A DNA stretch of 64,000 bases from Verrucomicrobiales bacterium. GTDB lineage: Bacteria > Verrucomicrobiota > Verrucomicrobiia > Verrucomicrobiales > DEV007. Below the pieces are notes generated by a model that saw nothing but the letters and a program-made list of their open reading frames with translations, had not been told where the DNA came from and ran no database searches. The DNA is taken from positions 6,975 to 70,974 of the forward strand of contig JAKISY010000009.1 of assembly GCA_021648365.1 (NCBI GenBank), given 5' to 3'. Below are positions 4,816 to 56,027 of the stretch, in pieces; position 1 is the stretch's first letter; every line of letters begins with the position of its first letter. Both the position numbers and the translations under genes were made by a program.

Positions 4816-6225
4816 TCACTCCGCCAACAACGGGTCACCCTGCTTTTTGCGCCACGCCTGCAAACGTTTCTTGAGTAATTCAAATCGTGCCTGATGCCGC
4901 GGCAAACCCGCCAAATTACTCATCTCCCACGGGTCTCTTTTCAAGTCGAACAACTGCCAATATTCCTTCACTGGATAATAAATCAGCTTCCAGTTATCGT
5001 CGCTGCGAATCATTCGCTGAGCATTGGTGTAATAACCAAAAATGTCCTCATGGTGTTTTTCTGCCTTACCTCTCAGCACAGCAGCAAAACTCTTCGCGGT
5101 CACTTCCTCCGGAATCTTGATCCCCACCAAGTCGCAAGTCGTCGGATACAGTTCGCGCAGATAAGTTTGCGCATCACTTCTCGAACCCGCCTCAATCCCT
5201 GGACCAGCGATGATCATCGGTACATTGATGGTATGCTCATACATATTCTGCTTGCCCCGCAACCCGTGACTGCCCACCGCCATGCCGTGATCGCTCGAAT
5301 AAATCACAATCGTATTATCCAATTCCCCACTCTCCTTCAGAGCCTTCAATATACGCCCCACCTGAGCATCCAGATCATCCACCACCGAATAATAAACTCG
5401 CAGCAAATCCTTCACCGCATATCGCGTTCGTGGCCACGCCAGTAGAGCTTCATCACGACCATCAAAGTTGCCGTGATCAAAAGGGTGTTCGGGCAAAAAA
5501 TTCTCCGGCACTTTCATATACTCCGTTTTGTATTTGCCCTCCATGCCCGGCGGCATGAACAGCGGATCGTGAGGAGCAGTAAAGTTCACCTGCATCAACC
5601 AGGGTTTGTCACCTTGCTGCTGGATCAAACCAATCGCCGCGTCAGCAAACTTCGCGCTGATATCCGGCGTCAGACCCACTCCCAGTTCTGGGTATTTCTT
5701 TTTCCCATCCTCTGATTGAAAGATCCACCCGCGATAACCTGTTACCGGAAAGCCCTTCCAATCCTGCTGTTCCTTCATCCACTTGCCGCCCCCACCACGG
5801 TAATAACCTGCCACTTTGGAATAGCCCGCCTTCGTTGGCGTAGTATTCACATGCCACTTCCCCACATACCAAGTATCATAACCAGCCTGTTTAAAAGTTC
5901 CCGCCCAGAACTTAGTGTCTGGATCAAAATCAATCCCCCGACGACTCTGTTGATGTTCCCATCCATGCATGCCGCTCATGATCTCCGAACGGCTCATCCA
6001 GCAAATCGGATACGAACAAGTCGCCCGTGAAAAGCTCATCCCTCGCGCCGCCAAGGCATCCAGATTGGGCGTATGAATTCGATCATTACCAGCCAAAGAG
6101 CGAATCGTATCTGCACGTTGATCATCCGCTAACAAGAAAAGAACGTTCGGCTTCTTTTCATCAGCCATCACCGAACCAGCAAACAAACACAATGCCGACA
6201 GCAATTTGATTGTTAGATTTCGCAT
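4816..6225 (-). CDS. S1 family sulfatase with non-canonical CWMSR nucleophile motif
   Basis: Start chosen at MRNLTIKLLSALCLFAGSVMA (signal peptide), ATG at 6225..6223. Motifs NVLFLLADDQRAD, GKWH and SSDHG. The active-site region reads PICWMSRSEIMSG instead of CxPxR. Confidence 0.9.
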   Translation of the reverse strand: MRNLTIKLLSALCLFAGSVMADEKKPNVLFLLADDQRADTIRSLAGNDRIHTPNLDALAARGMSFSRATCSYPICWMSRSEIMSGMHGWEHQQSRRGIDFDPDTKFWAGTFKQAGYDTWYVGKWHVNTTPTKAGYSKVAGYYRGGGGKWMKEQQDWKGFPVTGYRGWIFQSEDGKKKYPELGVGLTPDISAKFADAAIGLIQQQGDKPWLMQVNFTAPHDPLFMPPGMEGKYKTEYMKVPENFLPEHPFDHGNFDGRDEALLAWPRTRYAVKDLLRVYYSVVDDLDAQVGRILKALKESGELDNTIVIYSSDHGMAVGSHGLRGKQNMYEHTINVPMIIAGPGIEAGSRSDAQTYLRELYPTTCDLVGIKIPEEVTAKSFAAVLRGKAEKHHEDIFGYYTNAQRMIRSDDNWKLIYYPVKEYWQLFDLKRDPWEMSNLAGLPRHQARFELLKKRLQAWRKKQGDPLLAE

Positions 6226-6263
6226 TGTAACCCCTTGCCACGCTGTAAAAGGGGCGTGCATTA

Positions 6264-6408
6264 GTAAATGTGGCGCGCAATGGCATTGCGTGGAGGAACC
6301 GACTCGAGGGAATACACGGATTGCCAATCCGTGCCACGTTGCGAAGGAAGCTTTGGGCAAGTAAGTGGGACGCAATGGCATTGCGTGGGGCGACGGGGTA
6401 GTTCGAGG
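6264..6408. repeat. two ~45-nt direct repeat units, each carrying the palindrome ACGCAATGGCATTGCGT, flanking the palindrome ACGGATTGCCAATCCGT
   Basis: Unit 1 is at about 6264..6310 (palindrome core 6276..6290). Unit 2 is at about 6361..6408 (palindrome 6370..6386). The central palindrome is at 6316..6332. All lie in the 275-nt spacer between the dehydrogenase stop (6501) and the sulfatase start (6225). Confidence 0.7.
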
Positions 6409-6500
6409 AGAAATTGCTAATTCAGCTATTCGAACCTTAACAAAACCCCAAAACAAATTCACCCTCCGTGTTACAACTTTATAATACGATGTCCACATGT

Positions 6501-9500
6501 CTACTTCCCAGCCACCTTCATCAAGTAGGCAAACAGATCCCGCAGTTCATCATCCTTCAAGCCCACCAACAAACCTTCCGGCATCAGCGAAATCGGCGAT
6601 GCTTTCAGCGAGGTGATCTGATCACGTGTCAAAGTAGTCAACTGCCCAGCCGGATCTCGCAAAGTCACTGTCTTAGGATTTTGATCAGCAATCATGCCAA
6701 TCAACGTGCGACCATCTTTCATCGTCACGATGAAGTTGGTGTAACCCTCGCGAATCTCCAAACTCGGATCAATCATCGCCGGCAACCAGAACTCTAGGTT
6801 GCCTCGTTCATAACCTGTCAAATCAGGGCCAATCACCCCACCCTTATCAAACAGCTTATGACAAACCACACAACGCTGAGCAAACAAGGCATCCCCTTTT
6901 TTCGCATCACCAGCACCCTTCTCCAACAATGCCATGATACGTTTGATCTCCGCCTGTTTTGCCGCGGCAGGTTGCGCCCGCATGTCTGGCCAATGTTTGG
7001 CTACCAGCGCATTGATCTCTCCATCATTGTGCAACTTCAACTGCTGCACCACATCTGGCTCGATGTCCCTCGCTTTGATCACCCATGCATCCACTTGAGC
7101 CAAAAACAACTTCGCCCAATCCTTACGACTCGCCAAAACCCTGTCCGCCGTGCTGCGCACATTGTGCTCCGCAGGCAAGCTGCGCCCATATCGAGTCAAG
7201 ATCGTCTTAGCGATGGAGATGTCATCGTAGTTCGCCAACGACTGCATTGCCACTCGCTTCAGCGCACTTTGCTGATCCTGAGCCAAGACCGCCAACAAAG
7301 GTGCAATCACACTTTTATCGCCTAAATTACCAAACAACTTCGCCAAGGTCACCCGCTCTAGAGTATCGGACTTGCTGCTCTTCACCACCACGATTGCCTT
7401 TTTCAAAGACGCCTTATCGCCGCGTTGAACCCCTAAGACCAGATCGCTGTCTCCAGCTTTTTTAGCGTATTCATCCATCGCTTTAGTCAAAGCCGCTGGC
7501 AACTTGGGAATCGTTGATCCTTGGAATGCTTGTTGCAAACCTGTCATCAAAATCTTCTGAGCTTCTTCGTCAGGTGCTAACTGCAATAGCTTGGCACACA
7601 TCTCAAAATTCTCAGCTCCACCCGCCATCGCATAGCGCCGCATCAGACGTGCTGCCATTTCCTGTTTGAACAAAGGCAGATCCCAGATCTTGCCATCCTT
7701 GACCATATTCTCGATCTCGCCACTACCGTCCTCAGCATGAGCCTCCAGCGCCCACCAGTTCATCAGCGGCATGTGCAAGTCCTCCATATCTTCACTGCGC
7801 CCGAGCAAATTACGCACAATAGGAATCGCTATACTGGCAGGCAATCTTTTGGCAGATGCCGCCAACTGGGAACGCACATGCACACTGTCATCTTTAGCCG
7901 CCATTTCCGACAGCTTGTCGCCCAGATCCGTGCCCGCTTTACGCCGATCACCCACCAGCCTTACCACCCAACGACGCACATCCGCATCCTGATTCTCCAA
8001 CCACATGATTGCTAAACCTTCGGTCAATCCCCCCAACAGATTCAAAGCCCACAAAGCCTCAAGTGATTTCTGCCCACTGTCAGCACTCACCAGTTTTTTC
8101 AATTGCGGCAATACCGACTTATCACCACGCCAGCCCAACTCCAAAACCGCCCGCCGCCGCATCCAGCGATTATCACCATCAAACAAAGCGATCAGATCCG
8201 CATTCGACGTTTTAGCGAGATCAAAAGTCTTATGCTTCATGTCCATGCCCTTTGGCTTGACGCGATAAATACGACCACTGTCTTTATGCCAGTTATCCAC
8301 CGGGTAAACATGGCTCAAACGCGTGTCTGACCAGTCAGCAATGTAGATGCCACCCTCCGGACCCACCGCACCAAACACAGGGCGGAACCAGCGATCTTTG
8401 GTCACCATCAAATAATCTTCGTCCTTAGTCTGATAAGTCGAAGTGTCCGCCATCACCTCCGAGACATGCACCACGTTCTGCAAAGAATTCGGCGCAATGA
8501 TTTTCCCCTTGTAAGAATCGGGAAAAAGCCCGCCCTCATAAATCATAAAAGCCTGAGGAAAACGACGAGTATCCCCTTCATGACGCATGTGTTTAAAGTA
8601 ACCAAAAGCATAGGGATTGGTCAGCGGTCCGTGTTTACCCCAACCCTTCTCGCCATAACTTCCCTGCGGATAATACATACCACGGGTATTGCCATGATTG
8701 GTGCCAGAAAACACCCGCCCCTTGGCATCGATCTCAACACTGAAAGTATTGCCGCCACCCTCGCCATAAATTTCAAACTCATGGGTATCCGGATGATAAC
8801 GCCAGATGTTCTGCCCCTTCCACTTCACCATCTTACCCGTTGCCGGATTTTTCACATTGCCGGTGCTGGTACTACCATTAGCTCCATACAGCCAACCATC
8901 TGGCCCCCACTTCATATTACTCATCACCGAGTGCGTGTCCTCAAGCCCGAAGCCTGACAAACGCACTTCTGGATCGCCATCGGGAATATCATCACGATCA
9001 GCATCAGGATAAAACAACAGATAGGGAGGGTTACTCACCCAGATTCCTCCATGCCCGACCACCACCGAAGTGGCGATATTCAAACCCGTGATCACATCCT
9101 TGTGTTGGTCGTAATAGCCGTCCCCATTAGTATCTTCAAACACCGTGATGGTATCCTTGCCCTTCACGCCATGCGGAGGAGGCTCCGGCACCTTGTCAAA
9201 AACAGCCCGCAGATAGTTGTCGTATTCCACCACCTTCAAACCCGCAGGAAACTGATACTGCAAATACTGCATCACCCACATCCGACCACGGTGATCCCAA
9301 GAGACAAACAAAGGCTGACCAATCACCGGCTCACTCGCCATCACCTCCACTTCCACATCCTTGCGTGTGCGAAACTCCTTCGCCGCTTCCTGCGCGGAGA
9401 CCAAAGGGATATCCAAAGAAAGCATGGTCCCCCTGCCCTTGAAATTTTTGATAACATCCACCACCCCTTTGTTACCCGCCATGGAGGTGTCTTTTTTCTT

Positions 9501-9638
9501 CCCCTCCTCCGCAGGCACCGATTTTTTATCATCAGCAGCTGATAGCGTTAGGGGTAGTAACAGCAAGCTAAGCATTGCTACAATTAGAGCATTTTTTGTG
9601 ATCATAAATAACATCTGTTCTGAGGGATTCGAAAACAA
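6501..9638 (-). CDS. PVC-type membrane-bound dehydrogenase domain / HEAT repeat / CxxCH heme-binding protein
   Basis: 1045-aa ORF with a signal peptide (true start possibly at M9 or M12, 9614 or 9605). N-terminal beta-propeller region (GRMWVMQY, GPDGWLYGANGST), HEAT-like repeats, and a C-terminal CVVCHKLF cytochrome c motif followed by the SLMPEGL tail typical of Pirellula/Verrucomicrobium-type heme proteins. Confidence 0.85.
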   Translation of the reverse strand: MFSNPSEQMLFMITKNALIVAMLSLLLLPLTLSAADDKKSVPAEEGKKKDTSMAGNKGVVDVIKNFKGRGTMLSLDIPLVSAQEAAKEFRTRKDVEVEVMASEPVIGQPLFVSWDHRGRMWVMQYLQYQFPAGLKVVEYDNYLRAVFDKVPEPPPHGVKGKDTITVFEDTNGDGYYDQHKDVITGLNIATSVVVGHGGIWVSNPPYLLFYPDADRDDIPDGDPEVRLSGFGLEDTHSVMSNMKWGPDGWLYGANGSTSTGNVKNPATGKMVKWKGQNIWRYHPDTHEFEIYGEGGGNTFSVEIDAKGRVFSGTNHGNTRGMYYPQGSYGEKGWGKHGPLTNPYAFGYFKHMRHEGDTRRFPQAFMIYEGGLFPDSYKGKIIAPNSLQNVVHVSEVMADTSTYQTKDEDYLMVTKDRWFRPVFGAVGPEGGIYIADWSDTRLSHVYPVDNWHKDSGRIYRVKPKGMDMKHKTFDLAKTSNADLIALFDGDNRWMRRRAVLELGWRGDKSVLPQLKKLVSADSGQKSLEALWALNLLGGLTEGLAIMWLENQDADVRRWVVRLVGDRRKAGTDLGDKLSEMAAKDDSVHVRSQLAASAKRLPASIAIPIVRNLLGRSEDMEDLHMPLMNWWALEAHAEDGSGEIENMVKDGKIWDLPLFKQEMAARLMRRYAMAGGAENFEMCAKLLQLAPDEEAQKILMTGLQQAFQGSTIPKLPAALTKAMDEYAKKAGDSDLVLGVQRGDKASLKKAIVVVKSSKSDTLERVTLAKLFGNLGDKSVIAPLLAVLAQDQQSALKRVAMQSLANYDDISIAKTILTRYGRSLPAEHNVRSTADRVLASRKDWAKLFLAQVDAWVIKARDIEPDVVQQLKLHNDGEINALVAKHWPDMRAQPAAAKQAEIKRIMALLEKGAGDAKKGDALFAQRCVVCHKLFDKGGVIGPDLTGYERGNLEFWLPAMIDPSLEIREGYTNFIVTMKDGRTLIGMIADQNPKTVTLRDPAGQLTTLTRDQITSLKASPISLMPEGLLVGLKDDELRDLFAYLMKVAGK

Positions 9639-28953: not shown

Positions 28954-29586
28954 TCACTTTCCCTCACCTATCCGCAAACAAATCTGCACCCCCGGCCCGT
29001 GCACCCCTTCGATCAGGATCCCCTCAATATCCGCCGTCTTCGAAGGCCCCGTCACCCAAATCACATTCGAACTACCGCCCAAATTCTCAATCGCTTGAGG
29101 AATGTTGGCAAAAACCTTTTTTTGATCCGTCAACACCGCCACATGCACCCAAGGAGCCAAAGCCGCCAGACGGTCCACCGTATCCTCATCGTTCAAAATC
29201 ACCGTGCCCGACTCCGCAATCACCCCACTCGCTTTAGTGATCCCAAAAACATAATCATCCACCCTTTGATGATCAAATTCATAACTCACCTGCAAACCCG
29301 CCTCCACCAATACCTCTCCCACCGCCTGCTTCAACTCAGGATCACAATAGCCCTTCCCAAACCCTCCCTCTTTCAAAAACTCCACCAAGTCCGTCACTTC
29401 TTGCATTGGCTTACCACTGACCGCAGAAAAATTCTCAGCAAACTCCGTCCATCCGTCCTGCTCACTTCCCTTATGCCTAGCACTCAACAAAAGCGCACTA
29501 TCATACTCAGGCAAAACCGCCCTCTCACCCAAGCCCAACAGAGCTTCCTTCACCGCCAACTTCACTGTGTCCTCATCATTCTTCAT
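28954..29586 (-). CDS. lutC: lactate utilization protein C (LUD domain)
   Basis: Start at MKNDEDTV (29586), 2 nt after the lutB stop. The LUD/DUF162 pattern is GTVILN...LAPWVHVAVL...GPSKTADIEGILIEGVHGP. Confidence 0.85.
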   Translation of the reverse strand: MKNDEDTVKLAVKEALLGLGERAVLPEYDSALLLSARHKGSEQDGWTEFAENFSAVSGKPMQEVTDLVEFLKEGGFGKGYCDPELKQAVGEVLVEAGLQVSYEFDHQRVDDYVFGITKASGVIAESGTVILNDEDTVDRLAALAPWVHVAVLTDQKKVFANIPQAIENLGGSSNVIWVTGPSKTADIEGILIEGVHGPGVQICLRIGEGK

Positions 29587-29588
29587 TC

Positions 29589-30983
29589 CTAATTCCTCCC
29601 GCGCTCCTTCATCCAGCGTCGAAACTCCCCACCGGACCACTTCGGCAGCGTCCTGATCTTCAACCACGCTTGCAGCGGTTTCACCGGCATCATCGTGATC
29701 GGTAAATGATTCATCGCCTTGGACGCCGTCATCGCCGTTCGCCAAAGTTTCGGCGACGTCGCCAGCTTAGCAAAGGGCGCCATCGGCGGTGAACCCGCAG
29801 ATTTAATCCCCTCTTGGTTCGCCCGCGACCGCAATCTCAATAACAATTCCGGTATCGGAATATTCACCGGGCACACCTCATTGCACGCCCCGCACAAACT
29901 CGAAGCCTTGGGCAGATCCGCATACTTAGGAAAGTCATCACCCGCCAACAAGGGGCTCAACACCGCCCCGACCGGCCCACCATAAACCGCACGATAGCCA
30001 TGCCCACTGGTCTGACGATAAACCGGGCAGACATTCAAACAAGCTCCACAACGAATGCAACGCAGAATATCTCGCTCTTTCGATGCCAAAACTTTGCTAC
30101 GTCCATTATCGAGAAAAATCACATGCATCTGCTCCGGTCCCGAGGGCTGCTCTGCACTGCGCGGCCCTTTGATGAATTGCGTATAAACCGTCAACTGCTG
30201 CGCCGTCGCTGACCTACCTAGAAGATTAAGAAATAATCCCAAATCCTTATCCCTCGGCACCACCTTCTCAATCCCCACCAGCGCGATGTGCAAACCATTC
30301 GCAGCCATGCCAAAACGCGCATTGCCTTCATTGGTCACGACCACCAACCGTCCCGACTCCGCTGAGACAAAATTCGCCCCAGTCATACCCGCATCGCTTT
30401 GCAGGTATTTTTCTCGCAGATGTTTGCGTGCTCGCCGAGTGATCGTCTGCGGATCATCGTTGTACTCCCCCAAACCATGTTCTTCAAAACTCTCCGCCAC
30501 CTGACGCCGGTTTTTATGAATGATCGGCTGCACGATGTGACTCGGAGTATCCTCATCGATCTGGATGATAAACTCCCCCAAATCGGTCTCGACACACTCC
30601 ACCCCATTCTTTTCCAGATAGTCATTGAGGTGGATCTCCTCCGTCACCATGCTCTTTGACTTCACCACCCGCTTGGATCCATTCTCATTCAGAATAGCTA
30701 ACACCTGCTCACGCGCATCTTCCGCAGTAGAAGCAAAATGCACCTTGGCTCCGTTTTTCAGCAAAGCCGCCTCTGCCTGCTCTAAATACTCGTCCAGATG
30801 CTCCAGTGTATGCTGTTTGACCTCTCCTGCCAAACGCCGCAAAGCATCAGGATCGCCGTAATCTTCTTCCAGCTTCGCCTTGCGGCCAGCTACCCGAGTC
30901 ATCACACTCGACAACACCGCATCGCGCGTCTCGCGAGGCAAGTCGCGGGCAAACACATCAATCGGCTGGACAGACTTACTCAT
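29589..30983 (-). CDS. lutB: lactate utilization protein B, 4Fe-4S iron-sulfur protein
   Basis: Two ferredoxin motifs, CIRCGACLNVCPV and CGACNEVCPV, plus an LUD-type N-terminal region. Confidence 0.9.
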   Translation of the reverse strand: MSKSVQPIDVFARDLPRETRDAVLSSVMTRVAGRKAKLEEDYGDPDALRRLAGEVKQHTLEHLDEYLEQAEAALLKNGAKVHFASTAEDAREQVLAILNENGSKRVVKSKSMVTEEIHLNDYLEKNGVECVETDLGEFIIQIDEDTPSHIVQPIIHKNRRQVAESFEEHGLGEYNDDPQTITRRARKHLREKYLQSDAGMTGANFVSAESGRLVVVTNEGNARFGMAANGLHIALVGIEKVVPRDKDLGLFLNLLGRSATAQQLTVYTQFIKGPRSAEQPSGPEQMHVIFLDNGRSKVLASKERDILRCIRCGACLNVCPVYRQTSGHGYRAVYGGPVGAVLSPLLAGDDFPKYADLPKASSLCGACNEVCPVNIPIPELLLRLRSRANQEGIKSAGSPPMAPFAKLATSPKLWRTAMTASKAMNHLPITMMPVKPLQAWLKIRTLPKWSGGEFRRWMKERGRN

Positions 30984-31738
30984 CTCTGCTTCAAACCCAC
31001 ATCACGCAATACTTGCACCGCGTGACGGGTCTCAATATTCTTATTTTGTTTCTCCGCCAGACCTCCCATGTGCATCAGACAACTCATATCCGCCGATACC
31101 AATAGATCCGGCGATTGCTCCAACACACTGTCCAATTTCACCTGCCCGATCTCTCCCGACAAATGCGGAAAAGTCACCGAAAAAGTCCCACCAAAACCAC
31201 AACACTGCTCCGGCGTGCCGACCTCCACCAGCTCCACGCCTTCGATCGATGACAACAAAGTCTCCATCGCCGCACCCGTATCACTGCCACGAGTATGGCA
31301 GGAGTGATGCAATGCGATCTTCTTATTCAAAGTCCCTGCCCACTGCTTCACTCCCAAGCCATTCACCAGAAAATCAAACAACTCCCAAGTCCTCCCCGCT
31401 AGACTCTCCACCTCTTCGGTATCTGCTTTGTCCTCGAACAACAACTGTGACCCGTGAAAATGCATCGCTGCACAAGAGCCAGAAGGCACGATCACTGGTA
31501 GATCACCAGCAAAAACCTCCGCCGTGTAACGCCCTATTTTCTCCGCCGCAGGGAAATCTCCCGAGTTAAACGCAGGCTGGCCACAGCAAGTCTGCGCTTC
31601 CGGAAAGATCACCTCACAACCCACCGCCTCCAATACCTCCACCGTCGCTTTTGCCATATCGGCAAAAAACACATCCGACAAGCAGGTCGCCATCAGCAAA
31701 ACTTTACGCCCCGCTGGTCTGGATTTGGTTTGTGACAT
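30980..31738 (-). CDS. lutA: lactate utilization protein A, (Fe-S)-binding CCG-domain oxidoreductase
   Basis: CCG motifs (TCCGQP, QCCGFGGTF). The stop overlaps the lutB start in an ATGA (30980..30983). Confidence 0.9.
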   Translation of the reverse strand: MSQTKSRPAGRKVLLMATCLSDVFFADMAKATVEVLEAVGCEVIFPEAQTCCGQPAFNSGDFPAAEKIGRYTAEVFAGDLPVIVPSGSCAAMHFHGSQLLFEDKADTEEVESLAGRTWELFDFLVNGLGVKQWAGTLNKKIALHHSCHTRGSDTGAAMETLLSSIEGVELVEVGTPEQCCGFGGTFSVTFPHLSGEIGQVKLDSVLEQSPDLLVSADMSCLMHMGGLAEKQNKNIETRHAVQVLRDVGLKQR

Positions 31739-31791: not shown

Positions 31792-32961
31792 CTAAGCCAA
31801 GGGCGGAGGCACATCAGCAGAAGCTCGCCCCGCATTCACCTTCTTAATCACCAATACGATCAGCCCGGCAGCCACCACCAACAGCGTCACCCCCAAAACC
31901 GGACGATAAAACACCCAAGCAATCGCAATAGTCACTAGCGACAAACAAGCCGCCAGCAAAAACGCAATGATGCCCGTGCCAGCTCCAACGATGCCACCCA
32001 CAAAGGGAATCACATCAGCCAACACCGATGCCACTTTGAACACCATATTAAAGCCGATCATCATCAGTAAAAAACCTCCTCCACGTAACATCCAAGCCAA
32101 AGCCACGTTATCAGCCTCCGCCTTTTCGAACATTTGCTCTGCTGAGTGACTGCCAGTTTGCAACAACTCCACCTCACTGCCATTGGCAGTTTTATAGGGG
32201 ACAAAACTCTGCCCTTTCTGCACCGACACCAAACTGACCTCCAACGGCTTCACGGATTTGAAACTCACTCTCAGATCCCCCACCTTGGAATTGGCAGGAT
32301 CCGCCCCGATATAAAATCCACCGGACACCACTTTGACACTCTGCTGTAAATCCTGCGGTAGCATCTTCCCTTCACCCACGTCCACTGGGCTGGTATCATT
32401 AATTTTAGCCACCAAAGAAGGCGATAACAAAAAAGCCCCTAACTTCACTTTCTCAGCCTGCCATCGTTCCGAGGTATAAAGCATCTCCTTACCATTGGCA
32501 TGCCCCTCCAGCACCTTGAACTTGGACGAGTCCACCGGCGCATCCGACCACTCAAGAGCGTAAGAGTAGCTTTTGGTAGTTTTGGTTCCTCCTCCAAGCT
32601 TTTTCTCCTGCTTGCTCGATACCGATTCCTGCCACTGATAAATCTCCACATCACGCTCCAACTTCAGCGCCGTCGCACCCACACCGAACACCGGATCACT
32701 GAGTTTTTCATCCGTCTCAGCTCGCCCCGTCAGATGAATCAATTTGCCTTCGTTACTTTTGTCCAACGCCTCACTCGTCACCTCCATCACTTTGCTGCTG
32801 CCTTCCTGCAAAGCTTTATGTCGCTTCACCGCCCGTCCCTCATTCCAAAATAACAAAAAAAACGCGATCGCAATCAGAATCGCTCCCAAAACAATCCCCT
32901 TCAAAGCCCCGCCTATTCGACTGAACCACGATTGATTAGATACTTCTGTGTAATCTGCCAT
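31792..32961 (-). CDS. TMEM43/DUF1625 family membrane protein
   Basis: Start at MADYTEVSNQSWFSRIGGALKG. N-terminal TM segment followed by FWNEGR, a large soluble domain, and three C-terminal TM segments, which is the typical TMEM43 layout. Confidence 0.7.
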   Translation of the reverse strand: MADYTEVSNQSWFSRIGGALKGIVLGAILIAIAFFLLFWNEGRAVKRHKALQEGSSKVMEVTSEALDKSNEGKLIHLTGRAETDEKLSDPVFGVGATALKLERDVEIYQWQESVSSKQEKKLGGGTKTTKSYSYALEWSDAPVDSSKFKVLEGHANGKEMLYTSERWQAEKVKLGAFLLSPSLVAKINDTSPVDVGEGKMLPQDLQQSVKVVSGGFYIGADPANSKVGDLRVSFKSVKPLEVSLVSVQKGQSFVPYKTANGSEVELLQTGSHSAEQMFEKAEADNVALAWMLRGGGFLLMMIGFNMVFKVASVLADVIPFVGGIVGAGTGIIAFLLAACLSLVTIAIAWVFYRPVLGVTLLVVAAGLIVLVIKKVNAGRASADVPPPLA

Positions 32962-33083
32962 TTTATTATAAGGGAGGAAATTGCTGCTTCGCATTTTGAG
33001 GCAAACCTACTGCCTTCATCATACACAAAATAAAGTAGAATAACTTTTCAGATTTACCAGTCCGCAAATCAAAACGCCTAAAA

Positions 33084-33133
33084 CACCTGCCACGTAGTGC
33101 GGGCTTCCAACCCGCAATTCTCTTAGGCAGGTG
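33084..33133. repeat. nested hairpin of the N7-TCC-N7 REP-like family
   Basis: Outer arms CACCTGCC (33084..33091) and GGCAGGTG (33126..33133) enclose TGCGGGCTTCCAACCCGCA (33098..33116). Confidence 0.55.
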
Positions 33134-33283
33134 GGGACACCCGCCCGACCTACAGCCATCCGCGTTCCCATCAAACTTCACAGCAGCTGTGCAACAAAAA
33201 AACTCAAGCACTCAAAAGCCCCAAGCCCTCACTTGCAGATGACCATTTCCTCTGCAATCTTGCCACTGAAACACTTCCATAAC

Positions 33284-36200
33284 ATGATCACGCTCCGCCT
33301 TTTTAGCCAAACCCTCCTCGCCCTCACAGCCTGCACCTTGCTCTGCGCGCCTTCCTCCCAAGCAGCAGGAAAAAAAAAGCCCAACGTCATATTTATCCTC
33401 ACCGACAATCACGGAGCTTGGTCACTCGGATGTTATGGCAACAAAGACATTCGCACTCCACACATCGACAAAATGGCAGCGGAAGGGGTTCGTTTCACCA
33501 ATGCTTTTGCCAACAACGCCGTCTGCTCACCCACCCGAGCCACCTTCCTCACCGGCCTGATGCAGTCCCAGCACGGAGTGCACAATTTCCTCCATGGGAA
33601 AAACCTGCAAGTCGGTCCCGATCAACGCAATACTCTGGCGAACTTCACCTCACTGCCCGAAGTGCTGAAAAAAAACGGCTACTCCTGCGGATTGGTCGGC
33701 AAATGGCACCTTGGTAATAATACCGAATCCAATGAAGGGCTCGACGACTACTGGGTCACCCTGCCTGCCGGTGGCACCTCGACTTTTCACGGCGCGACCA
33801 TCATCGAAGACGGCAAGCTGCGCAAAGAGCCCGAATACCTTACCACCTTCTGGACCAAACACGCGCTCAAATTCATCGACCAAAGTGTCAAAACCCCCGA
33901 CAAACCCTTCTTTTTATACCTCGCTTACAATGGTCCCTACGGACTGTCCCGCTATCAGTTGAAATCATCAGGTAATCGCCACGCCAAATATTACGCCGAC
34001 AAAGATCTGCCATCTTTCCCGCGTGGAGTCATCCACCCGTGGGAATACAACAACCGCGAATATTTTGGCAACCCAGTTAGCATCCGCCGTTACGCCGAAG
34101 AACTCAGCGCCATCGATGATGGTGTCGGCGAATTGATGCAAAAACTCAAAGATCTCGGCATCGACGAAGACACCCTAGTGATCTTCGCCGCCGACCAAGG
34201 CTGGGCAGGAGGTCAGCACGGCTTCTGGGGCATGGGCGACCACACCCGCCCGATCAATGCCTTCGACTTTTCGATGAAAATTCCAATGATATTCCGCCAA
34301 CCTGGCAAAATCCCCGCTGGCAATACCCCCGATATTCACGTCACCAACTACGACTTCATGCCTAGCGTGCTGAGCTATCTAGGTATGGGCGAGCAAATGC
34401 CGACCGCCCCCAAATCACCAGGACGGGATTTTTCACCAGCCATGCTCGGGCAAAAAACCGACAAGTGGGACAACAGCGTATTTTACGAATACGAAAGCCT
34501 ACGCTGTGTGCGCTCGGGAGACTGGAAATACATCGAACGTTTTGAAGATGGCTACGACGAGCTCTATGACCTCAAAAATGATCCCGATGAACGCCACAAT
34601 CTGATCAACGAAGAAAAATCGCTCGCCAAAAAAACTGAACTCAAAAAACAACTCGATGATTTTTTTGCGGTCAATGTAGAGAAAAAATACGACCTCTGGA
34701 ACGGCGGCATCTCCCAACCCAAAACCCTCGTCTGGGGCAAAGAAGCTCAAGACCGGCTCAAAGCCAATCTCGCCAAAGGGCGCGGCACCATTCCTAACGT
34801 CTTCGATCCCTCATTCAGCCCTCCGTCAATGACCCTGCCCGACGGCTACATCGCCGAAGTCGCCGCCGCGCCACCACTGGTCGAGCGTCCGATGATGGCG
34901 ACCTTTGACGAATACGGCCGCTTGTTTGTCGCCGAGAGTTCAGGCGTCAACTTGAACGACAAAGAACTCGACAAGCAAAAACCCCACTCGATCAAACTGC
35001 TCGTAGATACCGACAATGATGGCATCTTCGACAAAGCCACCGTTTTTGCCGACAACATGACCTTTCCACAAGGCGCGCTGTGGCTGCAAGATTCCCTCTA
35101 CGTGATGTCCCCTCCTAGCCTGTGGCGACTCGAAGACACCACCGGCAACGGCGTCGCCAATGTGCGTGAAGAATTGGTCACTGGTTTCAAATACACCGGC
35201 AACGCCGCCGATGTTCACGGCCCCTTCCTGCATCCCAACGGACGCATCTACTGGTGCCACGGACGCAAGGGGCACACCGTGGTGGATACCGATACCGGAC
35301 GGGTAGTATCCGACAACAAAGGCGCGCGCATCTGGTCTTGTTTCCCCGACGGATCGGATATCCAGGTTCACGCCGGAGGCGGCATGGACAACCCCGTGGA
35401 ACTCGACTTCATGGACAACGGCGACATCGTCGGCAGTATCAATCTGTTCTACGGTCGCCCACGCGGTGATACGCTCAACCACTGGATTCACGGCGGTGTC
35501 TATCCTCGTTATGACCAACAATCCGTCATCGATGAGTTCAAAAGCACCGGCCCGCTGCTGACCGAATTTCACAACTTTGGCCACGTCGCCGTATCAGGCA
35601 TGATGCGCTACCGCAGCGCGCACGTGAACCCACAATGGAAAGACAACATCTTCACCACCCACTTCAATACCCAGCAAGTGACCCGCACCGTGATCAAACA
35701 ACAAGGCTCCACCTACGCCTCGGTCAAAACCGTGCCCTTCCTCAAAATCAACGACCCCGGCGTCCACATCACCGACGTGCTCGAAGACCCCAACGGCGAT
35801 TTATTAGTGATCGACACTGGCGGCTGGTTCCGCCAAGGCTGCCCCAATTCCCAAGTCGCACGCCCCGACATCTCAGGTGCCATTTACCGCATCCGCAAAC
35901 CCGGTCTGCGTGATCGCAAACAAGATCAATGGGGCAAAAATCTCGAATGGAAAAAAGCCAGCTTCGACGAAGTCGCGCATCGCCTCAATCACGACAGCTT
36001 TTCCATCCGCGAAAAAGCTAGCGCTTGGTTAGCCGAACGTGGCGAACCCTCCATCCCCGCACTCGCCGATGCGCTGGAAAGCACTGACCCCATCCTGCGT
36101 CGCAATGCCGTATGGGCATTGTGTCGCCTACCCTTCACCCAATCTCGTGAGCTATCGCGCAAAATGCTAACCGATCCCGACGAATCCGTAAGACAAGCCG

Positions 36201-37825
36201 CCGCACAAGCTGCCGGTATCAATAATGATCGCCGCGGAGTCGATGCATTGGTCGCCCTCGTTCGCAACGACACCGCCCCCGTCGCCCGCGAAGCTGCCGC
36301 CTCGCTCGGCATGATCGGCAACAAAAAAGCCGTGCCCGGCATCCTCGCCACCCTCGACCGCGAAATGGATCGCCACCAAGAACACGCTATGATCTACGCT
36401 CTCATCGAGCTCAATGACTACAAAAACACCGCCAAAGCTCTAGAATCCGAACACCCCCTTGTGATCAGCCGTGCGCTCTGGGCACTCGATCAAATGGATA
36501 GCTCCAAATTGCAGCCAGGCGACGTTCTCACCCTGCTCGATCGCGATGATGAACAACTCGGCAAAACCGCCACTCAAATCGCTAAACGCCACCCTGAGTG
36601 GGATGGAGCCATCGCCAACCGTTTTTTTGAATGGCTCGATGACAAAAAAACGCTGACTCCCTCTCAGCATAATACCATCAGCCTGTTGGCACCGAGTTTC
36701 ATCACCACTCCACCCATGTTCCCCATCGTCGCTCAGCTGCTCAACAGCGAAGATGACAAACAAAAAGAACTCGGTTTTGCGATCATCGCTGCTAGTGACC
36801 AATCTCCCCTACCAGAGACTTGGACTCCTGCTTTCAAAAAAGCACTAACCAGCAAAGACCAACAACAACTGCTGCATGCGCTCAACGCTTTAGCTAAAAT
36901 CAAAACCGATAGCTTTGATCAAGACCTGCGCAACATCGGCAAAAGTGATCAACAGAGCACCATGATCCGCATCCGTGCCCTGCATGCCGTTTCCACCAAA
37001 AACGCCGTCTTGCACCCCGCTGCCTATCAACTATTCAAAGGTCTGTTGCAAGCCGATGCCAGCCCCTTCCAGAGACTCGAAGCCGCACAAATGCTCGGCA
37101 GTGCCAAACTCACCAAACCTCAGTTGATCGAAATAGCACAGCTCACCATCAATGCCGGCCCGATGGATTTACCACATCTGATCAAAGTTTTTGAAAAACA
37201 ACGCACTCCAGAGATTGGCATGGCGCTTGCCAAAGCTCTACCCAAATCCCCCGGCATCGGCAGCATCCCCGCCACCGAGCTGCAACGTTTATTCACGCAT
37301 TTCGGAGCCGAAGTAACCGCTCAATTCAAACCCACCTTGGACGGACTACTAGCCAAAGCCGAGCAGCAAACTCAACGCCTTGCAGCGATCGAACCCGAAC
37401 TCGACAACGGTGACGCCAAACGAGGGGAAGCCGCCTTCATCGCAGGCAAAGGAGCTTGCATGACCTGTCATAAAATCGGCAACGTCGGACGCTCCATCGG
37501 GCCAGAGCTCACCCACATCGGCAGTATCCGAACCAAACGCGACTTCCTCGAATCCATCCTCTACCCGAGTGAATCCCTCGCCCGCGACTTCGAGTCATTC
37601 TCCGTCACCATGAAAGACGGCGCAGTCCACTTCGGCTTGATCAAAAGAGAAAGCACCGACTCCATCTACGTCACCGACCTAACAGGCAAAGAAACCGCAC
37701 TGCCTAGATCCAATGTGAAATCTGTCGCCCCCGTCCCCATCTCATTGATGCCGCAAGGTCTAGATGCCGCCATGAGCAAACAAGAACTGCTAGACATCAT
37801 CGCCTATTTGAAAGCGAGCCAGTAA
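33284..37825 (+). CDS. fusion protein: S1 sulfatase + PVC-type membrane-bound dehydrogenase beta-propeller + HEAT repeats + CxxCH heme-binding domain
   Basis: Start at MITLRLFSQTLLALTACTLL (signal peptide). The sulfatase part has NVIFILTDNHG, canonical CSPTRATFLTG, GKWHLG and ADQG. The propeller part has ATFDEYGRLFVAES and DVHGPFLHPNGRIYW. HEAT-like repeats include DPILRRNAVWAL and DESVRQAAA. The C-terminus has CMTCHKIG ... SLMPQGL. It is a single 1513-codon frame. Confidence 0.85.
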   Translation: MITLRLFSQTLLALTACTLLCAPSSQAAGKKKPNVIFILTDNHGAWSLGCYGNKDIRTPHIDKMAAEGVRFTNAFANNAVCSPTRATFLTGLMQSQHGVHNFLHGKNLQVGPDQRNTLANFTSLPEVLKKNGYSCGLVGKWHLGNNTESNEGLDDYWVTLPAGGTSTFHGATIIEDGKLRKEPEYLTTFWTKHALKFIDQSVKTPDKPFFLYLAYNGPYGLSRYQLKSSGNRHAKYYADKDLPSFPRGVIHPWEYNNREYFGNPVSIRRYAEELSAIDDGVGELMQKLKDLGIDEDTLVIFAADQGWAGGQHGFWGMGDHTRPINAFDFSMKIPMIFRQPGKIPAGNTPDIHVTNYDFMPSVLSYLGMGEQMPTAPKSPGRDFSPAMLGQKTDKWDNSVFYEYESLRCVRSGDWKYIERFEDGYDELYDLKNDPDERHNLINEEKSLAKKTELKKQLDDFFAVNVEKKYDLWNGGISQPKTLVWGKEAQDRLKANLAKGRGTIPNVFDPSFSPPSMTLPDGYIAEVAAAPPLVERPMMATFDEYGRLFVAESSGVNLNDKELDKQKPHSIKLLVDTDNDGIFDKATVFADNMTFPQGALWLQDSLYVMSPPSLWRLEDTTGNGVANVREELVTGFKYTGNAADVHGPFLHPNGRIYWCHGRKGHTVVDTDTGRVVSDNKGARIWSCFPDGSDIQVHAGGGMDNPVELDFMDNGDIVGSINLFYGRPRGDTLNHWIHGGVYPRYDQQSVIDEFKSTGPLLTEFHNFGHVAVSGMMRYRSAHVNPQWKDNIFTTHFNTQQVTRTVIKQQGSTYASVKTVPFLKINDPGVHITDVLEDPNGDLLVIDTGGWFRQGCPNSQVARPDISGAIYRIRKPGLRDRKQDQWGKNLEWKKASFDEVAHRLNHDSFSIREKASAWLAERGEPSIPALADALESTDPILRRNAVWALCRLPFTQSRELSRKMLTDPDESVRQAAAQAAGINNDRRGVDALVALVRNDTAPVAREAAASLGMIGNKKAVPGILATLDREMDRHQEHAMIYALIELNDYKNTAKALESEHPLVISRALWALDQMDSSKLQPGDVLTLLDRDDEQLGKTATQIAKRHPEWDGAIANRFFEWLDDKKTLTPSQHNTISLLAPSFITTPPMFPIVAQLLNSEDDKQKELGFAIIAASDQSPLPETWTPAFKKALTSKDQQQLLHALNALAKIKTDSFDQDLRNIGKSDQQSTMIRIRALHAVSTKNAVLHPAAYQLFKGLLQADASPFQRLEAAQMLGSAKLTKPQLIEIAQLTINAGPMDLPHLIKVFEKQRTPEIGMALAKALPKSPGIGSIPATELQRLFTHFGAEVTAQFKPTLDGLLAKAEQQTQRLAAIEPELDNGDAKRGEAAFIAGKGACMTCHKIGNVGRSIGPELTHIGSIRTKRDFLESILYPSESLARDFESFSVTMKDGAVHFGLIKRESTDSIYVTDLTGKETALPRSNVKSVAPVPISLMPQGLDAAMSKQELLDIIAYLKASQ

Positions 37826-38128: not shown

Positions 38129-38597
38129 CTACTCGTATCTGAAAAACTGCGCTAGTAAGGAATGGTATTGCTCAAAACTTGAAAGATTGTTATGCCCGCT
38201 TTGTTGCACCACTCGCACAGAGACTTGGGATCGAGGGAAGGCATTTACCAGTCGCTGCGAATGCTTCCTAGCTATGACTTCGTCCTTGCCCGCAATGATG
38301 ATCAGCGTTTTAGCCTTGATGGAATGAACCCTGCTCAATGAATCATACAGCATAAGCATTGTAAACAACAGGTTCGCCATTCCCCCCAAAGTAAATAATC
38401 GCTTTCTCCTTGTTTTTGTTAAGAACGATAACCTCAATGGACTCTCCTCCATTCTCAAAAACAAGTTGATCATAGGGATGGTCAATCCGAGCCGTCGGAA
38501 AGTAAAGAAAGCTCCGCTGAAATACAAAAAGCAGCAGTCCTACCAAGAGATACATTGCCAAGTAAAACATCAGTCTTTTTTTATTACGCTTACTCAT
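38129..38597 (-). pseudogene. decayed alpha/beta hydrolase (internal deletion plus frameshift)
   Basis: One frame holds the N-terminal part (MSKRNKK...IIYFGGNGEP, 38343..38597). Another frame holds the C-terminal part (KTLIIIAGKDEVI...SGHNNL...). Total length is about 156 codons versus about 260 expected. The nucleophile-elbow region is absent. AT-rich. Confidence 0.6.
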
Positions 38598-40822
38598 CTT
38601 ACCCCCACCTCACTGATATCGATCTGCTCAAAACCCAATATCCGAATCACTGCAGCATTGCCCACCCGAAAGTCATCCTTCGCAGGGTTCGCCAACTGCG
38701 GATCTAGGCTCAAGCTGTTTTTTTCCACCCCCCTTTTGCGCTGCTCAGCCAGAAAAACATTCGCCCACTTGGCATCACTCGAGTTAAAATACAAATTGCG
38801 ATCTGCCCGACAAGTGCTCAAAGCCGACGCCGGACGCAAACGCCCTGAGTGCCTCCACGCCTTTTGATGTTCAAATAAAATCTCCTGCCCTGCCTCCTGA
38901 GAAACAAAAAGATTGCCTTGCACCCGCGATCCTGCCACCGGAGCCCCTGAAAAAACTAAATAACCACGCTGATGTATGCCCTCCCTCCCTACTGGAGTTT
39001 TTGATCTCAAATCGTAAATGATATTATTAACAATATCATTCCTGCCCTTACTGATGATACCCTCGCCCCGACAACGAGCGATCACGTTTTTTTCAATCAA
39101 CACAGCGTGCTGATCATCATCACAGCGAATCGCCGCATTCATATTTGCACTAGTGATGTCGTGAATGAAATTATGATACAGATGATTGCCCCTGCCCGTT
39201 CCCGAAACGTAAATCGCATTGCCGTCGCCCATCAACTCCATGCAATGCGAGATATCATTGTAGGCAATCGTATTAAAACGCCCGTGCATCAGCGGCTCTC
39301 GCTTTTTCCATGTTCGCTCTTGTCCCTCCAACAGCAAAAGCACTTCATCCCAGCGCACCGTGCGACTCGATTCCTTCCTACCCTCCCGATCCATCTGCGT
39401 TCGCCCACTCACCACGATTGCAGTGTAGGGCACATGTCGGATGCTATTATGCACCACCTGATTGCTACCACTTTGCCAAAGAAAAATCGCAGGTGAGTGT
39501 TTCCACAGCTTGCCAATATGATGAATCGTATTATCAGCAATCACGTTAGCACGATTAACATCTTTCAGCCCCAATCCATAACCTGCCAGCAACACTCCGA
39601 CACCCCCAAGGTCTGCAAACTCACAGCGACGAATCTGATTGCGCTGACAATGCAAATCCAACCTGATCCCTGCCGACGCGCTGTTGGTGAATTTGCACTG
39701 AGTAAAAACACACCGCTCCGCACTCCGTAACCGCACCATCGCACTTGGTTGATCATACATCTCCCAGTCATGCTGCAAACCTAGCCCTGCTTTTTTCTCA
39801 CTCCAGCCAAAAGCGTTTGCCTGAGTGAAGGTCAAGCCATGGAAACTCAGCCCCTTCACCGGCTTGTCTTTGAGATTATTTCCATCCACTTGCCCCTCGA
39901 TCAACAGCAACTGCGCCAAGCGCCCCGCAGTGATGTCACCCGAGGGCTTTTGAGCATCTGGAGGCCACAAATACAGCTTATTCTTAACTTCATCGTAAAC
40001 CCACTCTCCTGGCTCATCCAAAACCGCCAACACATTCTCCACCCACAAACTGCCCTTGGGAAAATAGGCTTTAGCTGGTGGCAGCATCGCATAGGTCGCA
40101 GGCTCTCGAGTTCTGATCCATCCACCTTTGCGATCGACACTCTCCACCGTCAGACGATTCATCACCCAAGGAAATTTTGGCACCAGCTCAATCGTCGCAG
40201 CAGTCAAATCCCCCAAACCCTCAAGATCGTCCTTAGCCAAATACAAATGACGCTGATCAATCGCCCTGCGGAAACGATACGGCACCTCTGCTGGAGGTCT
40301 TGCCAAAGGATCATACCCGCGACTGCGCGCTCGTGGCAGCATTTCATCCCCCTCATACAAAGCCCGAATTGGCTGCCAATCTTTATCCACCGCGATCTCC
40401 CATAGATGTTCTCTGCTCGATTTTTCCCACTCACCCGTCAATTTAGCAGCACCGCTGAAAATCGCTTTTTCTCCTGGATAACTCGCATACACCACCCGCA
40501 CGCCATCTTCCACACTGTCCCTCAAATCAAAAACCGCCGTTTTCTTCAAACGGTAAATACCCCCACGCAACCATACTCGGATTTCCATTCCTTGCTTTTG
40601 CTCCACTTGTCGCACCGCATCTCGCGCTCTTTGCAAGGTCGCAAAGGGCTCCACTTCGCTCCCACTTTGAGCATCATCGCCCTCCGTAGCGACAAAAAAT
40701 TCCACCCGCTCTACTGCCATCATCTGCCCACCAAAAAATAACATCGTCACCACCCCGTAAAGCAGGCAGCGACAAATTTCCAGTTTTAGCCACAGAGCAA
40801 ATAATAAACGCATCCACGCCAC
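38594..40822 (-). CDS. right-handed parallel beta-helix repeat protein (pectin-lyase fold)
   Basis: 742-aa ORF with FFVATEGDDAQSGSEVEPFATLQRARDAV, an N-terminal motif common in beta-helix proteins. Repeated N/H-rich beta-helix turns (NTIHHIG, HNSIRHV, YNDISHC, HNFIHDI). The exact start is uncertain. Confidence 0.7.
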   Translation of the reverse strand: MAWMRLLFALWLKLEICRCLLYGVVTMLFFGGQMMAVERVEFFVATEGDDAQSGSEVEPFATLQRARDAVRQVEQKQGMEIRVWLRGGIYRLKKTAVFDLRDSVEDGVRVVYASYPGEKAIFSGAAKLTGEWEKSSREHLWEIAVDKDWQPIRALYEGDEMLPRARSRGYDPLARPPAEVPYRFRRAIDQRHLYLAKDDLEGLGDLTAATIELVPKFPWVMNRLTVESVDRKGGWIRTREPATYAMLPPAKAYFPKGSLWVENVLAVLDEPGEWVYDEVKNKLYLWPPDAQKPSGDITAGRLAQLLLIEGQVDGNNLKDKPVKGLSFHGLTFTQANAFGWSEKKAGLGLQHDWEMYDQPSAMVRLRSAERCVFTQCKFTNSASAGIRLDLHCQRNQIRRCEFADLGGVGVLLAGYGLGLKDVNRANVIADNTIHHIGKLWKHSPAIFLWQSGSNQVVHNSIRHVPYTAIVVSGRTQMDREGRKESSRTVRWDEVLLLLEGQERTWKKREPLMHGRFNTIAYNDISHCMELMGDGNAIYVSGTGRGNHLYHNFIHDITSANMNAAIRCDDDQHAVLIEKNVIARCRGEGIISKGRNDIVNNIIYDLRSKTPVGREGIHQRGYLVFSGAPVAGSRVQGNLFVSQEAGQEILFEHQKAWRHSGRLRPASALSTCRADRNLYFNSSDAKWANVFLAEQRKRGVEKNSLSLDPQLANPAKDDFRVGNAAVIRILGFEQIDISEVGVR

Positions 40823-55979: not shown

Positions 55980-56027
55980 AATACCCCCTAACTTCTATCT
56001 TCTATTTCCTGTTTCCTATTTTCATCC

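Follow-up and report, generated by a model that had tools for sequence, protein, structure and literature searches.

Planctomycetes and Verrucomicrobia carry stand-alone haem proteins of the PVC type, annotated as "putative membrane-bound dehydrogenase", in which a six-bladed beta-propeller, a HEAT solenoid and a haem c domain come directly after the signal peptide. About 20 PVC-type haem/propeller proteins per genome have been counted (PMC7397252), and in the present analysis a single subfamily returned at least 7379 database matches. One protein of this architecture, Lac161_ORF7 (AGW45552), encoded on a Chthoniobacter-like cosmid, was reported as a beta-galactosidase with a Km for lactose of 1.8 mM and a kcat of 13 per second (PMC5342196). 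The anammox (Kuenenia) protein Kustd1711 is an electron-transfer dihaem cytochrome c with haems at about +350 mV, in which Met292 is the distal ligand of the C-terminal haem (PMC11791136). Bacterial six-bladed pyrroloquinoline quinone (PQQ) propellers with haem domains, in carbohydrate loci also holding sulfatases, are treated in a 2026 preprint (bioRxiv 10.64898/2026.07.10.737718), and a 2016 survey touched briefly on planctomycete multi-domain sulfatases that carry HEAT_2 (PMC4807772). Here, we describe a gene in which an S1 sulfatase and the PVC-type haem module form one polypeptide. It lies in a 64,000-nucleotide stretch of DNA from a Verrucomicrobiales bacterium (assembly GCA_021648365.1, contig JAKISY010000009.1, positions 6,975 to 70,974), the whole of which is called the window below.

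The order along the protein is signal peptide, S1 sulfatase, DUF7133/TIGR02604 six-bladed propeller, HEAT solenoid and TIGR02603 haem c domain. The fusion shares the three-part module with the stand-alone proteins, passes both NCBIfam cut-offs as they do and occurs in the same phyla, but its module sits downstream of the sulfatase. The features of the gene are as follows.

33284..37825, + strand: whole fusion gene including the stop codon (open reading frame and domains; 116 of the 120 best homologue clusters alike)
33284..33364, + strand: Sec (signal peptidase I-type) signal peptide, residues 1-27, predicted cleavage after SQA (read from the sequence and homologue leaders)
33368..34693, + strand: S1 formylglycine-type sulfatase domain, residues 29-470 (PF00884, SGSH_C, 7STT)
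33524..33538, + strand: formylglycine motif C81-S-P-T-R85 (at least 98% conserved in 118 homologues; 84 of 84 subfamily members)
34694..34825, + strand: structured linker, residues 471-514, with conserved Y-D-L-W-N-G-G-x-S-Q (G475 and Q478 at least 98% conserved)
34826..35923, + strand: six-bladed beta-propeller (DUF7133/TIGR02604), residues 515-880, GSDH-like fold (profile matches, Foldseek, hhalign)
35951..37408, + strand: HEAT/ARM-like alpha-solenoid, about residues 890-1375, joining propeller to haem domain (HEAT_2, alphaRep)
37409..37822, + strand: C-terminal monohaem cytochrome c domain (TIGR02603), residues 1376-1513, Kustd1711 type (119 bits; 7ZS0)
37457..37471, + strand: haem c attachment motif C1392-M-T-C-H1396 (at least 98% conserved)
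37748..37750, + strand: Met1489, predicted distal haem ligand, within S-x-M-P (at least 98% conserved)

The open frame runs unbroken from 33131 to 37825 on the + strand and comprises 1564 codons when counted from a GTG. The ATG at 33284 was taken as the start, giving a protein of 1513 amino acids (aa), because this agrees with the lengths of the homologues (about 1500-1550 aa) and because a Sec-type signal peptide comes directly after it. The signal peptide reads MITLRLFSQTLLALTACTLLCAPSSQA, with the predicted cleavage site lying between it and the following AG. A-x-A or signal peptidase I-type leaders are also present in the homologues; the export signal needed for haem c attachment is therefore present in the query and its relatives alike. 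Lipoprotein anchoring via L-T-A-C17 was considered and dropped, since the lipobox is not conserved (5 of 120 homologues). In Pfam, the sulfatase family PF00884 is matched at residues 33-368 (153.6 bits, cut-off 25), SGSH_C at 327-459, DUF7133 (PF23500) at 514-844 (135 bits) and HEAT_2 at about 924-1006; in NCBIfam, TIGR02604 scores 156.6 bits against a cut-off of 122.2 and TIGR02603, at residues 1376-1511, 119 bits against 68.15. The reading frame and these matches bear out the original prediction, which had described a single 1513-codon frame fusing a sulfatase with a propeller, HEAT repeats and a CxxCH motif and had expected PF00884, TIGR02604 and TIGR02603, all of which were obtained above their cut-offs. 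The motifs that it quoted are all present (the DN/DD region as TDNHG, and CSPTR, GKWHLG and ADQG) and, as D41-N42, C81-S-P-T-R85, G139-K-W-H-L-G144 and D304-Q305-G306, are at least 98% conserved in an alignment of 118 full-length homologues. Conserved at the same level are C1392-x-x-C1395-H1396 and M1489. An exact look-up of the window protein in public assemblies found no record.

A homologue search over 5.8 billion proteins gave 744 matches at E <=1e-10, and in 116 of the 120 best clusters the match extends over 97% or more of the query, the Pfam domains are the same and the identity is 42-90%. Carriers of the fusion include metagenome-assembled genomes (MAGs) of Verrucomicrobiales and Akkermansiaceae as well as closed genomes of cultured Planctomycetes, namely Kolteria novifilia Pan216, Stieleria maiorica, S. 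neptunia, Thalassoroseus pseudoceratinae and Rosistilla spp. When the species genomes of GTDB were scanned, further carriers came from Thalassoglobus, Rubripirellula, Rhodopirellula, Pirellulaceae and Planctomycetaceae, and there was a 96% identical copy in the Verrucomicrobiota MAG JASFYY010000093.1. Across the 118 aligned members, 252 positions are at least 98% conserved; sulfatase, propeller and haem domain all contribute to them, as does the linker with G475 and Q478. The fusion is genuine, ancient and under purifying selection in all three functional parts, and it is kept in at least 116 divergent clusters across two phyla. The alternative that a misassembly, a missed stop or a frameshift joined two genes, for which a mapping of reads across the junction had been suggested, could be excluded by comparison instead of reads, and we give it an almost negligible probability: the continuous architecture recurs in more than 100 independent assemblies, closed genomes included, the linker holds conserved residues and the copy in JASFYY010000093.1 is 96% identical. 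The comparative data thus already refute such an artefact, and no point in its favour was found. Two longer fusions, P0250 (1815 aa) and P0251 (1640 aa), contain 170-370 extra residues between sulfatase and propeller, a region in which there is no Pfam domain.

The fusion is already in databases under generic names, and its function is not described. A search of the literature on TIGR02603, TIGR02604, DUF7133, PVC-type haem-binding proteins and sulfatase plus cytochrome combinations found no paper describing the fusion. The "HEAT_2" sulfatases of the 2016 survey probably belong to the same family, but the propeller and cytochrome parts and their conservation are not described there (PMC4807772). 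Other multi-domain sulfatases, such as the GH78-sulfatase 6HR5 from the Formosa ulvan locus and the planctomycete proteins of the 2016 survey (PMC4807772), likewise combine a sulfatase with a second domain acting on the same polysaccharide; the fusion differs from them in that the partner carries a covalent haem, which implies redox chemistry.

The nearest solved structure of the sulfatase domain is 7STT, a Pedobacter yulinensis sulfatase (E 4e-47 by sequence, 29% identity, fold template modelling (TM) score 0.74). With 7STT and with the carrageenan, mucin and glycosaminoglycan sulfatases 6PRM, 7AN1, 9FO1 and 5G2V, the domain has in common the S1 fold (target-normalised Foldseek TM 0.74-0.77) and an SGSH_C-type C-terminal subdomain, as well as the C-x-P-x-R motif, LysA/HisA and the positions of the metal ligands. 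The metal ligands D41, N42, D304 and Q305 are kept together with K140/H142, all of them invariant and aligned with 7STT. What sets the domain apart from the solved S1 sulfatases, besides an identity of 29% or less and the roughly 1000 additional residues of propeller, HEAT and haem c in the fused protein, are two further positions of the active site. An invariant Tyr219 stands at the HisB position, where it aligns with the His of the 7STT sequence "YSVH", and at the LysB position there is an invariant loop, G316-M-G-D-H-T-R-P323, with no Lys. In human ARSA, HisB and LysB are H229 and K302. As far as the alignment tells, the lack of both residues is the mark of a divergent subfamily and not proof of inactivity.

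This subfamily signature is invariant in 23 fused and 61 unfused members. The genome scan recovered about 59 stand-alone genes (about 455 aa) that are 53-58% identical to the fused domain and carry every signature residue; they were found in Pirellulaceae, Gimesia, Prosthecobacter, Chthoniobacteraceae, Opitutaceae and Akkermansia, with a few in Acidobacteriota and Hydrogenedentota. When the sulfatase domains were placed in a neighbour-joining tree, whose rooting is uncertain, the unfused proteins formed one clade and all fused members fell outside it; two apparent exceptions are one frameshifted gene and one gene truncated at a contig end. Because every fused member is placed outside the single unfused clade, the tree fits a single ancient fusion event.

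At the other end of the protein, homology links the final 138 residues to the C-terminal haem domain of Kustd1711 (7ZS0 residues 178-314, E = 6e-22). The CxxCH motif is aligned between the two proteins and Met1489 aligns with Met292, the distal ligand of Kustd1711; the fusion has one such haem domain whereas Kustd1711 has two. By sequence, haem attachment and the predicted His/Met ligation are conserved family-wide, and the case for a redox role depends chiefly on this. The solenoid that leads to the haem domain gave alphaRep matches, and its model is all-helical with a predicted local distance difference test (pLDDT) mostly above 90. AlphaFold2 models were built from a 97-sequence alignment for two overlapping halves of the protein, residues 29-890 (pLDDT 90.1, predicted TM score (pTM) 0.89) and residues 505-1513 (pLDDT 91.2, pTM 0.84), and within the former the linker is modelled at a pLDDT of about 70-90. 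Since these multi-domain chains reach pTM values of 0.89 and 0.84, the models would imply a fixed packing of the domains.

For the propeller, the best fold match found by Foldseek is 2ISM (TM 0.69-0.72, 14-15% identity), a protein from Thermus in the family of PQQ-dependent soluble glucose dehydrogenases (sGDH), followed by the luciferin-regenerating enzyme of the SGL family (5D9B, TM 0.63). PDB sequence and profile searches with the propeller returned only NHL, integrin and WD40 noise (E >=0.003), fold searches with the two multi-domain models gave lists dominated by sulfatase and HEAT/importin matches, and only the fold search and hhalign tie the propeller to GSDH. When hhalign was run against an alignment of YliI, 7CDY, 2ISM and 3A9G, blades 5-6 alone were aligned to the PQQ-sGDH family (probability 79%), and blades 1-4 were not reliably alignable. 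Among the conserved propeller residues, His, Asp and Asn are frequent (H645, D702-N703, E706, N720, R727, D729, H733, H767, N795, H828, T830-D831, D844 and C853); the conserved residues sit at positions equivalent to the sGDH active site, but His, Asp, Asn and Glu replace Arg and Lys. Such a site would seem better fitted to a cation than to PQQ, a tricarboxylate. Quinohaemoprotein sugar dehydrogenases, such as fungal CcPDH (AA8-AA12, 6JWF) and the bacterial PQQ enzymes with haem domains mentioned above, likewise combine a six-bladed propeller of this fold with a cytochrome, follow a logic of intramolecular electron relay and act in a periplasmic or extracellular, carbohydrate-related setting. 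Unlike them, the fusion has a HEAT solenoid of about 490 residues inserted and a c-type, Kustd1711-like cytochrome, and 6JWF is absent from the top 50 Foldseek matches.

Besides the fusion, the window contains a sulfatase gene and a stand-alone haem gene next to each other:

4816..6225, - strand: neighbouring sulfatase of a different S1 subfamily, motif C-W-M-S-R (26% identity to the fused domain)
6501..9638, - strand: stand-alone PVC-type haem protein, DUF7133 + HEAT + TIGR02603, 1045 aa (distant paralogue of the fused module)

The original prediction took this pair, at 4816..9638, as the same two modules in the opposite order and hence as one half of a Rosetta-stone pair. The domains and the opposite order were confirmed and the start of the sulfatase was corrected: in the open reading frame 4816..6498 it is probably Met92 (position 6225), because the preceding 91 codons are unlike protein and a good signal peptide, MRNLTIKLLSALCLFAGSVMA, comes next. 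The gap of 2 nt that the over-extended frame would leave within the pair was accordingly rejected, the real gap being about 275 nt. In the C-W-M-S-R motif of this sulfatase, Met replaces the Pro/Ala of the usual C/S-x-P/A-x-R. An 799-aa open reading frame with no Pfam match (2407-4806, + strand) adjoins the pair. Between the pair and the fused halves, the sulfatases are 26% and the propellers 21% identical, and the fused propeller forms a separate subfamily with its own invariant residues; at such distances, the two genes are not to be read as unfused orthologues of the fused halves. Moreover, orthologues of the in-window haem protein at 57-69% identity have no sulfatase as next gene, nor is there an adjoining sulfatase at its best metagenomic matches (L089-L091), and since four sulfatase open reading frames occur within the 64-kb window, chance adjacency is not negligible.

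In favour of the Rosetta-stone argument is an excess of sulfatases directly beside stand-alone haem genes, seen in a survey of 80 metagenomic loci of the stand-alone haem family for which the expected number was derived from how densely sulfatases occur at a distance of 0.5-10 kb. A same-strand sulfatase abuts the haem gene in 8 loci against 1.35 expected (Poisson P about 9e-5); as some contigs are related, the eight cases represent only about 4 independent lineages and the real significance is weaker. Sulfatases are the commonest neighbour family of the stand-alone haem genes, lying within 4 kb in 13 of the 80 loci, and the abutting ones represent several S1 subfamilies with about 25% identity between them, so that the coupling would have arisen repeatedly. 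In one locus (L124:5413-10981), an unfused sister sharing 55% identity with the fused domain is encoded 116 nt upstream of, and on the same strand as, a ThuA-DUF7133-HEAT-cytochrome c gene, so that sulfatase and haem protein are ordered as they are in the fusion; this is the only case found of a fused-type sulfatase paired with a separate haem protein.

The haem module has other partners as well. ThuA is fused to DUF7133, HEAT and cytochrome c at L110:9089-12982 and L124:7169-10978 (about 1270-1300 aa), and about 11 of the 80 metagenomic loci share the ThuA-fusion open reading frame length of about 1300 aa. In P0153 (1276 aa), the module is fused to AP_endonuc_2, a xylose-isomerase-like TIM barrel; near the stand-alone haem genes, GFO_IDH_MocA oxidoreductases, BD-FAE esterases and DUF1501 recur. 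ThuA, GFO/IDH/MocA and such TIM barrels are families of sugar-oxidation and keto-sugar pathways. The haem module therefore behaves as a cassette joined to different carbohydrate-processing enzymes, and this variety of partners argues that it acts on the sugar and not in sulfatase maturation.

The reading that we favour, to which we give somewhat less than an even chance, is that of a periplasmic bifunctional enzyme removing sulfate from a carbohydrate and then subjecting that carbohydrate to a redox step linked to haem c. The S1 domain would take a sulfate ester off a sugar or oligosaccharide, using a formylglycine nucleophile derived from Cys81 and a metal bound by D41, N42, D304 and Q305, together with K140/H142. 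The propeller, packed rigidly on the sulfatase, would bind the desulfated product at the centre of one face, among the conserved His, Asp and Asn residues, for a redox step of which oxidation is the likeliest form. The HEAT solenoid would position the C-terminal His/Met haem c domain, and the latter would hand electrons to a periplasmic acceptor and on to the respiratory chain. A redox role is favoured because the haem domain has its homologue in an electron-transfer cytochrome, Kustd1711, with the distal Met aligned. The analysis shows the domain composition, the conserved catalytic and haem-binding residues, export, the age and spread of the fusion and the recurring same-strand sulfatases beside stand-alone haem genes; what we infer are propeller catalysis and redox activity, which cofactor is used (presumably other than canonical PQQ), which way the electrons flow and what the substrate is.

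Several observations weigh against this proposal. With HisB and LysB both absent, even the substrate class of the sulfatase is uncertain. PF07995 (GSDH) reaches only 19.5 bits on the fusion (threshold 25), over residues 768-844 only, and the PQQ signature of the sGDH/YliI family (2G8S, 2ISM), with which the propeller shares the six-bladed fold, is not present: the invariant R-x-R of blade 6 in the PQQ enzymes faces H828-x-T830, the Lys of "ALK" in blade 5 faces N795, and R-N-P-Q-G corresponds, by motif comparison, to D702-N703-P-V-E706, with Arg replaced by D702. No cofactor could be assigned to the propeller from the fold, profile or alignment evidence. Because the PQQ-binding residues are not kept, the earlier label "dehydrogenase" describes the GSDH-like six-bladed fold (2ISM) and not a demonstrated property. 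The only experimental report on the stand-alone architecture concerns the hydrolysis of lactose and not a redox reaction (PMC5342196). Finally, a PVC-haem gene lies within 10 kb of a true sister sulfatase in only 4 of about 59 genomic loci, and about 90% of the stand-alone haem genes in the 80 surveyed loci have no abutting sulfatase. Since most sister sulfatases and most haem genes thus stand without the partner, the association of the two appears real but facultative.

The alternatives differ mainly in what the propeller is taken to do. It may be a new kind of redox catalyst, with the PQQ-dehydrogenase fold, a His/Asp/Asn-rich site holding a metal or another organic cofactor and HEAT wiring to haem c, so that desulfation and oxidation are channelled; we regard this as rather doubtful. 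Unlikely, in our judgement, is an ordinary two-enzyme degradative protein in which the propeller is a non-redox carbohydrate-active domain (a glycoside hydrolase (GH), lyase or lactonase) and the haem an accessory. This explanation agrees with the hydrolysis of lactose by Lac161_ORF7, whose domains are TIGR02604, HEAT_2 and TIGR02603 (PMC5342196), with the listing of TIGR02604 proteins as putative propeller glycosidases in planctomycete genome papers (PMC7397252, PMC5352709), with the existence of planctomycete sulfatases fused to GH, lyase, esterase and HEAT_2 domains (PMC4807772; GH78-sulfatase structure 6HR5), and with the likeness of the propeller to metal-dependent SGL-type hydrolases (5D9B, TM 0.63) and its conserved Asp, Asn and His in place of Arg and Lys. 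It leaves unexplained, however, the CxxCH and distal Met conserved in every member. What Lac161_ORF7 shares with the fusion is the domain architecture, and identity between the fused propeller and the stand-alone type of the window is no more than 21%. The lactase report itself relied on a glucose-release assay with a His-tagged protein from E. coli BL21(DE3), in which contamination by the host LacZ may not have been excluded, and three unrelated "novel" enzymes of the same paper all have a LacZ-like Km of 1.8-3.2 mM (PMC5342196); we therefore consider the activity of Lac161_ORF7 as unconfirmed. The statement that the stand-alone architecture has no known function accordingly needs the qualification that one member was reported as a beta-galactosidase (PMC5342196), in a report that is doubtful.

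Distinctly unlikely is a propeller/HEAT/haem part without catalysis, serving for binding, docking or sensing, for instance as a carbohydrate-binding propeller with a haem tether or redox sensor. A recognisable cofactor site was not found, HEAT repeats are typical scaffolds and the module is joined to several unrelated enzymes; but the propeller conserves polar residues very strongly, and in a distinct pattern, where the active site would be expected by equivalence, and the huge stand-alone family (about 1000 aa), with no enzyme attached, would be hard to explain as a mere tether. Highly improbable is that the module serves the sulfatase itself, in its maturation or electron supply, as the original prediction had allowed. 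The module would then oxidise Cys81 in the periplasm to give formylglycine, the electrons going to cytochrome c, and so be a third formylglycine-generating system, or it would supply or remove electrons for sulfatase activation in another way. The conversion of Cys to formylglycine is indeed a two-electron oxidation, extended peptides are commonly bound by HEAT/ARM solenoids, sulfatases of several subfamilies abut haem genes, and PVC genomes also pair c-type-cytochrome-like PSCyt proteins with sulfatase-like DUF1501 proteins. This role is disfavoured by the occurrence of the module on ThuA and AP_endonuc_2, neither of which has a formylglycine, and by the unfused sisters, which have the identical CSPTR site and mostly no module nearby. 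Furthermore, the roughly 20 paralogues per genome point to substrate-specific enzymes (PMC7397252), and the formylglycine motif emerges about 1400 residues ahead of the haem domain.

The surroundings of the genes gave no substrate clue: no conserved operon partner was found around the 23 fused genes or around the approximately 59 unfused sister sulfatases. Recurring neighbours are limited to other sulfatases, DUF1501/PSCyt proteins and two unannotated families, the other neighbours being common only to close relatives. Lacking a conserved operon partner, the fusion appears functionally self-contained. The PSCyt1/PSCyt2/PSD1 and DUF1501 pairs seen beside fusion genes and sister sulfatases are likewise a PVC-specific pairing of a cytochrome-c-like protein with one of the alkaline phosphatase superfamily (sulfatase-like), but are built of unrelated domains in two separate proteins. 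On a 3-Mb verrucomicrobial contig (L002, 555-16982), the fusion is clustered with a stand-alone DUF7133-cytochrome c protein and two further sulfatases, as well as another cytochrome c protein and a PSCyt1/PSCyt2/PSD1 and DUF1501 pair.

In the window, the fusion is flanked on one side by a divergent TMEM43-like gene with lutABC and on the other by a GH141-like beta-helix gene (38594-40822, - strand). Upstream and divergently transcribed are the TMEM43-family gene (31792-32994, - strand) and a lutABC-type lactate-utilisation operon (28954-31738, - strand), an arrangement retained in close relatives only (L001, L009, L010). Further away, an eight-bladed PQQ_2/BamB-like propeller protein is encoded at 47853-49118 (+ strand), and another is found near a stand-alone haem gene (L004:2031-3632); PQQ biosynthesis genes were not seen in the window. 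In a cluster at 51853-57590 (- strand), a GH123-like gene with Laminin_G_3 adjoins two sulfatases (54555-55979, C-G-A-S-R, and 56028-57590, C-S-P-T-R); this cluster looks like a small locus for sulfated glycans containing N-acetylgalactosamine. Other scattered carbohydrate-active genes, which besides the GH141-like one comprise a CE15-like glucuronyl esterase (18413-19735, + strand), a BNR/sialidase-like gene (23286-24464, + strand) and a NamZ exo-muramidase (1110-2339, + strand), are consistent with a glycan-degrading verrucomicrobium.

Planctomycetes and Verrucomicrobia are major degraders of algal and host sulfated polysaccharides. The PVC-type haem/propeller proteins are among their most expanded families, and functional knowledge of them amounts to one doubtful lactase report. 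A conserved, self-contained fusion links the haem module to the breakdown of sulfated glycans, beside the fusions with ThuA and with a xylose-isomerase-like barrel, and the fused orthologues of cultured bacteria, such as QDV15308.1 of Rosistilla oblonga, QEF98376.1 of Stieleria maiorica and QDU63631.1 of Kolteria novifilia, each offer one polypeptide as a handle for tests of substrate, cofactor and electron flow. If the redox reading is true, part of the carbon of marine sulfated polysaccharides would be oxidised in the periplasm, coupled to respiration, which lies outside current models. If the propeller is indeed a new redox catalyst, electrons from algal and mucin glycans would enter the respiratory chain directly in the periplasm, and the hundreds of PVC "membrane-bound dehydrogenase" paralogues, together with their sulfatase, ThuA and TIM-barrel partners, would constitute an unrecognised oxidative route of glycan catabolism.

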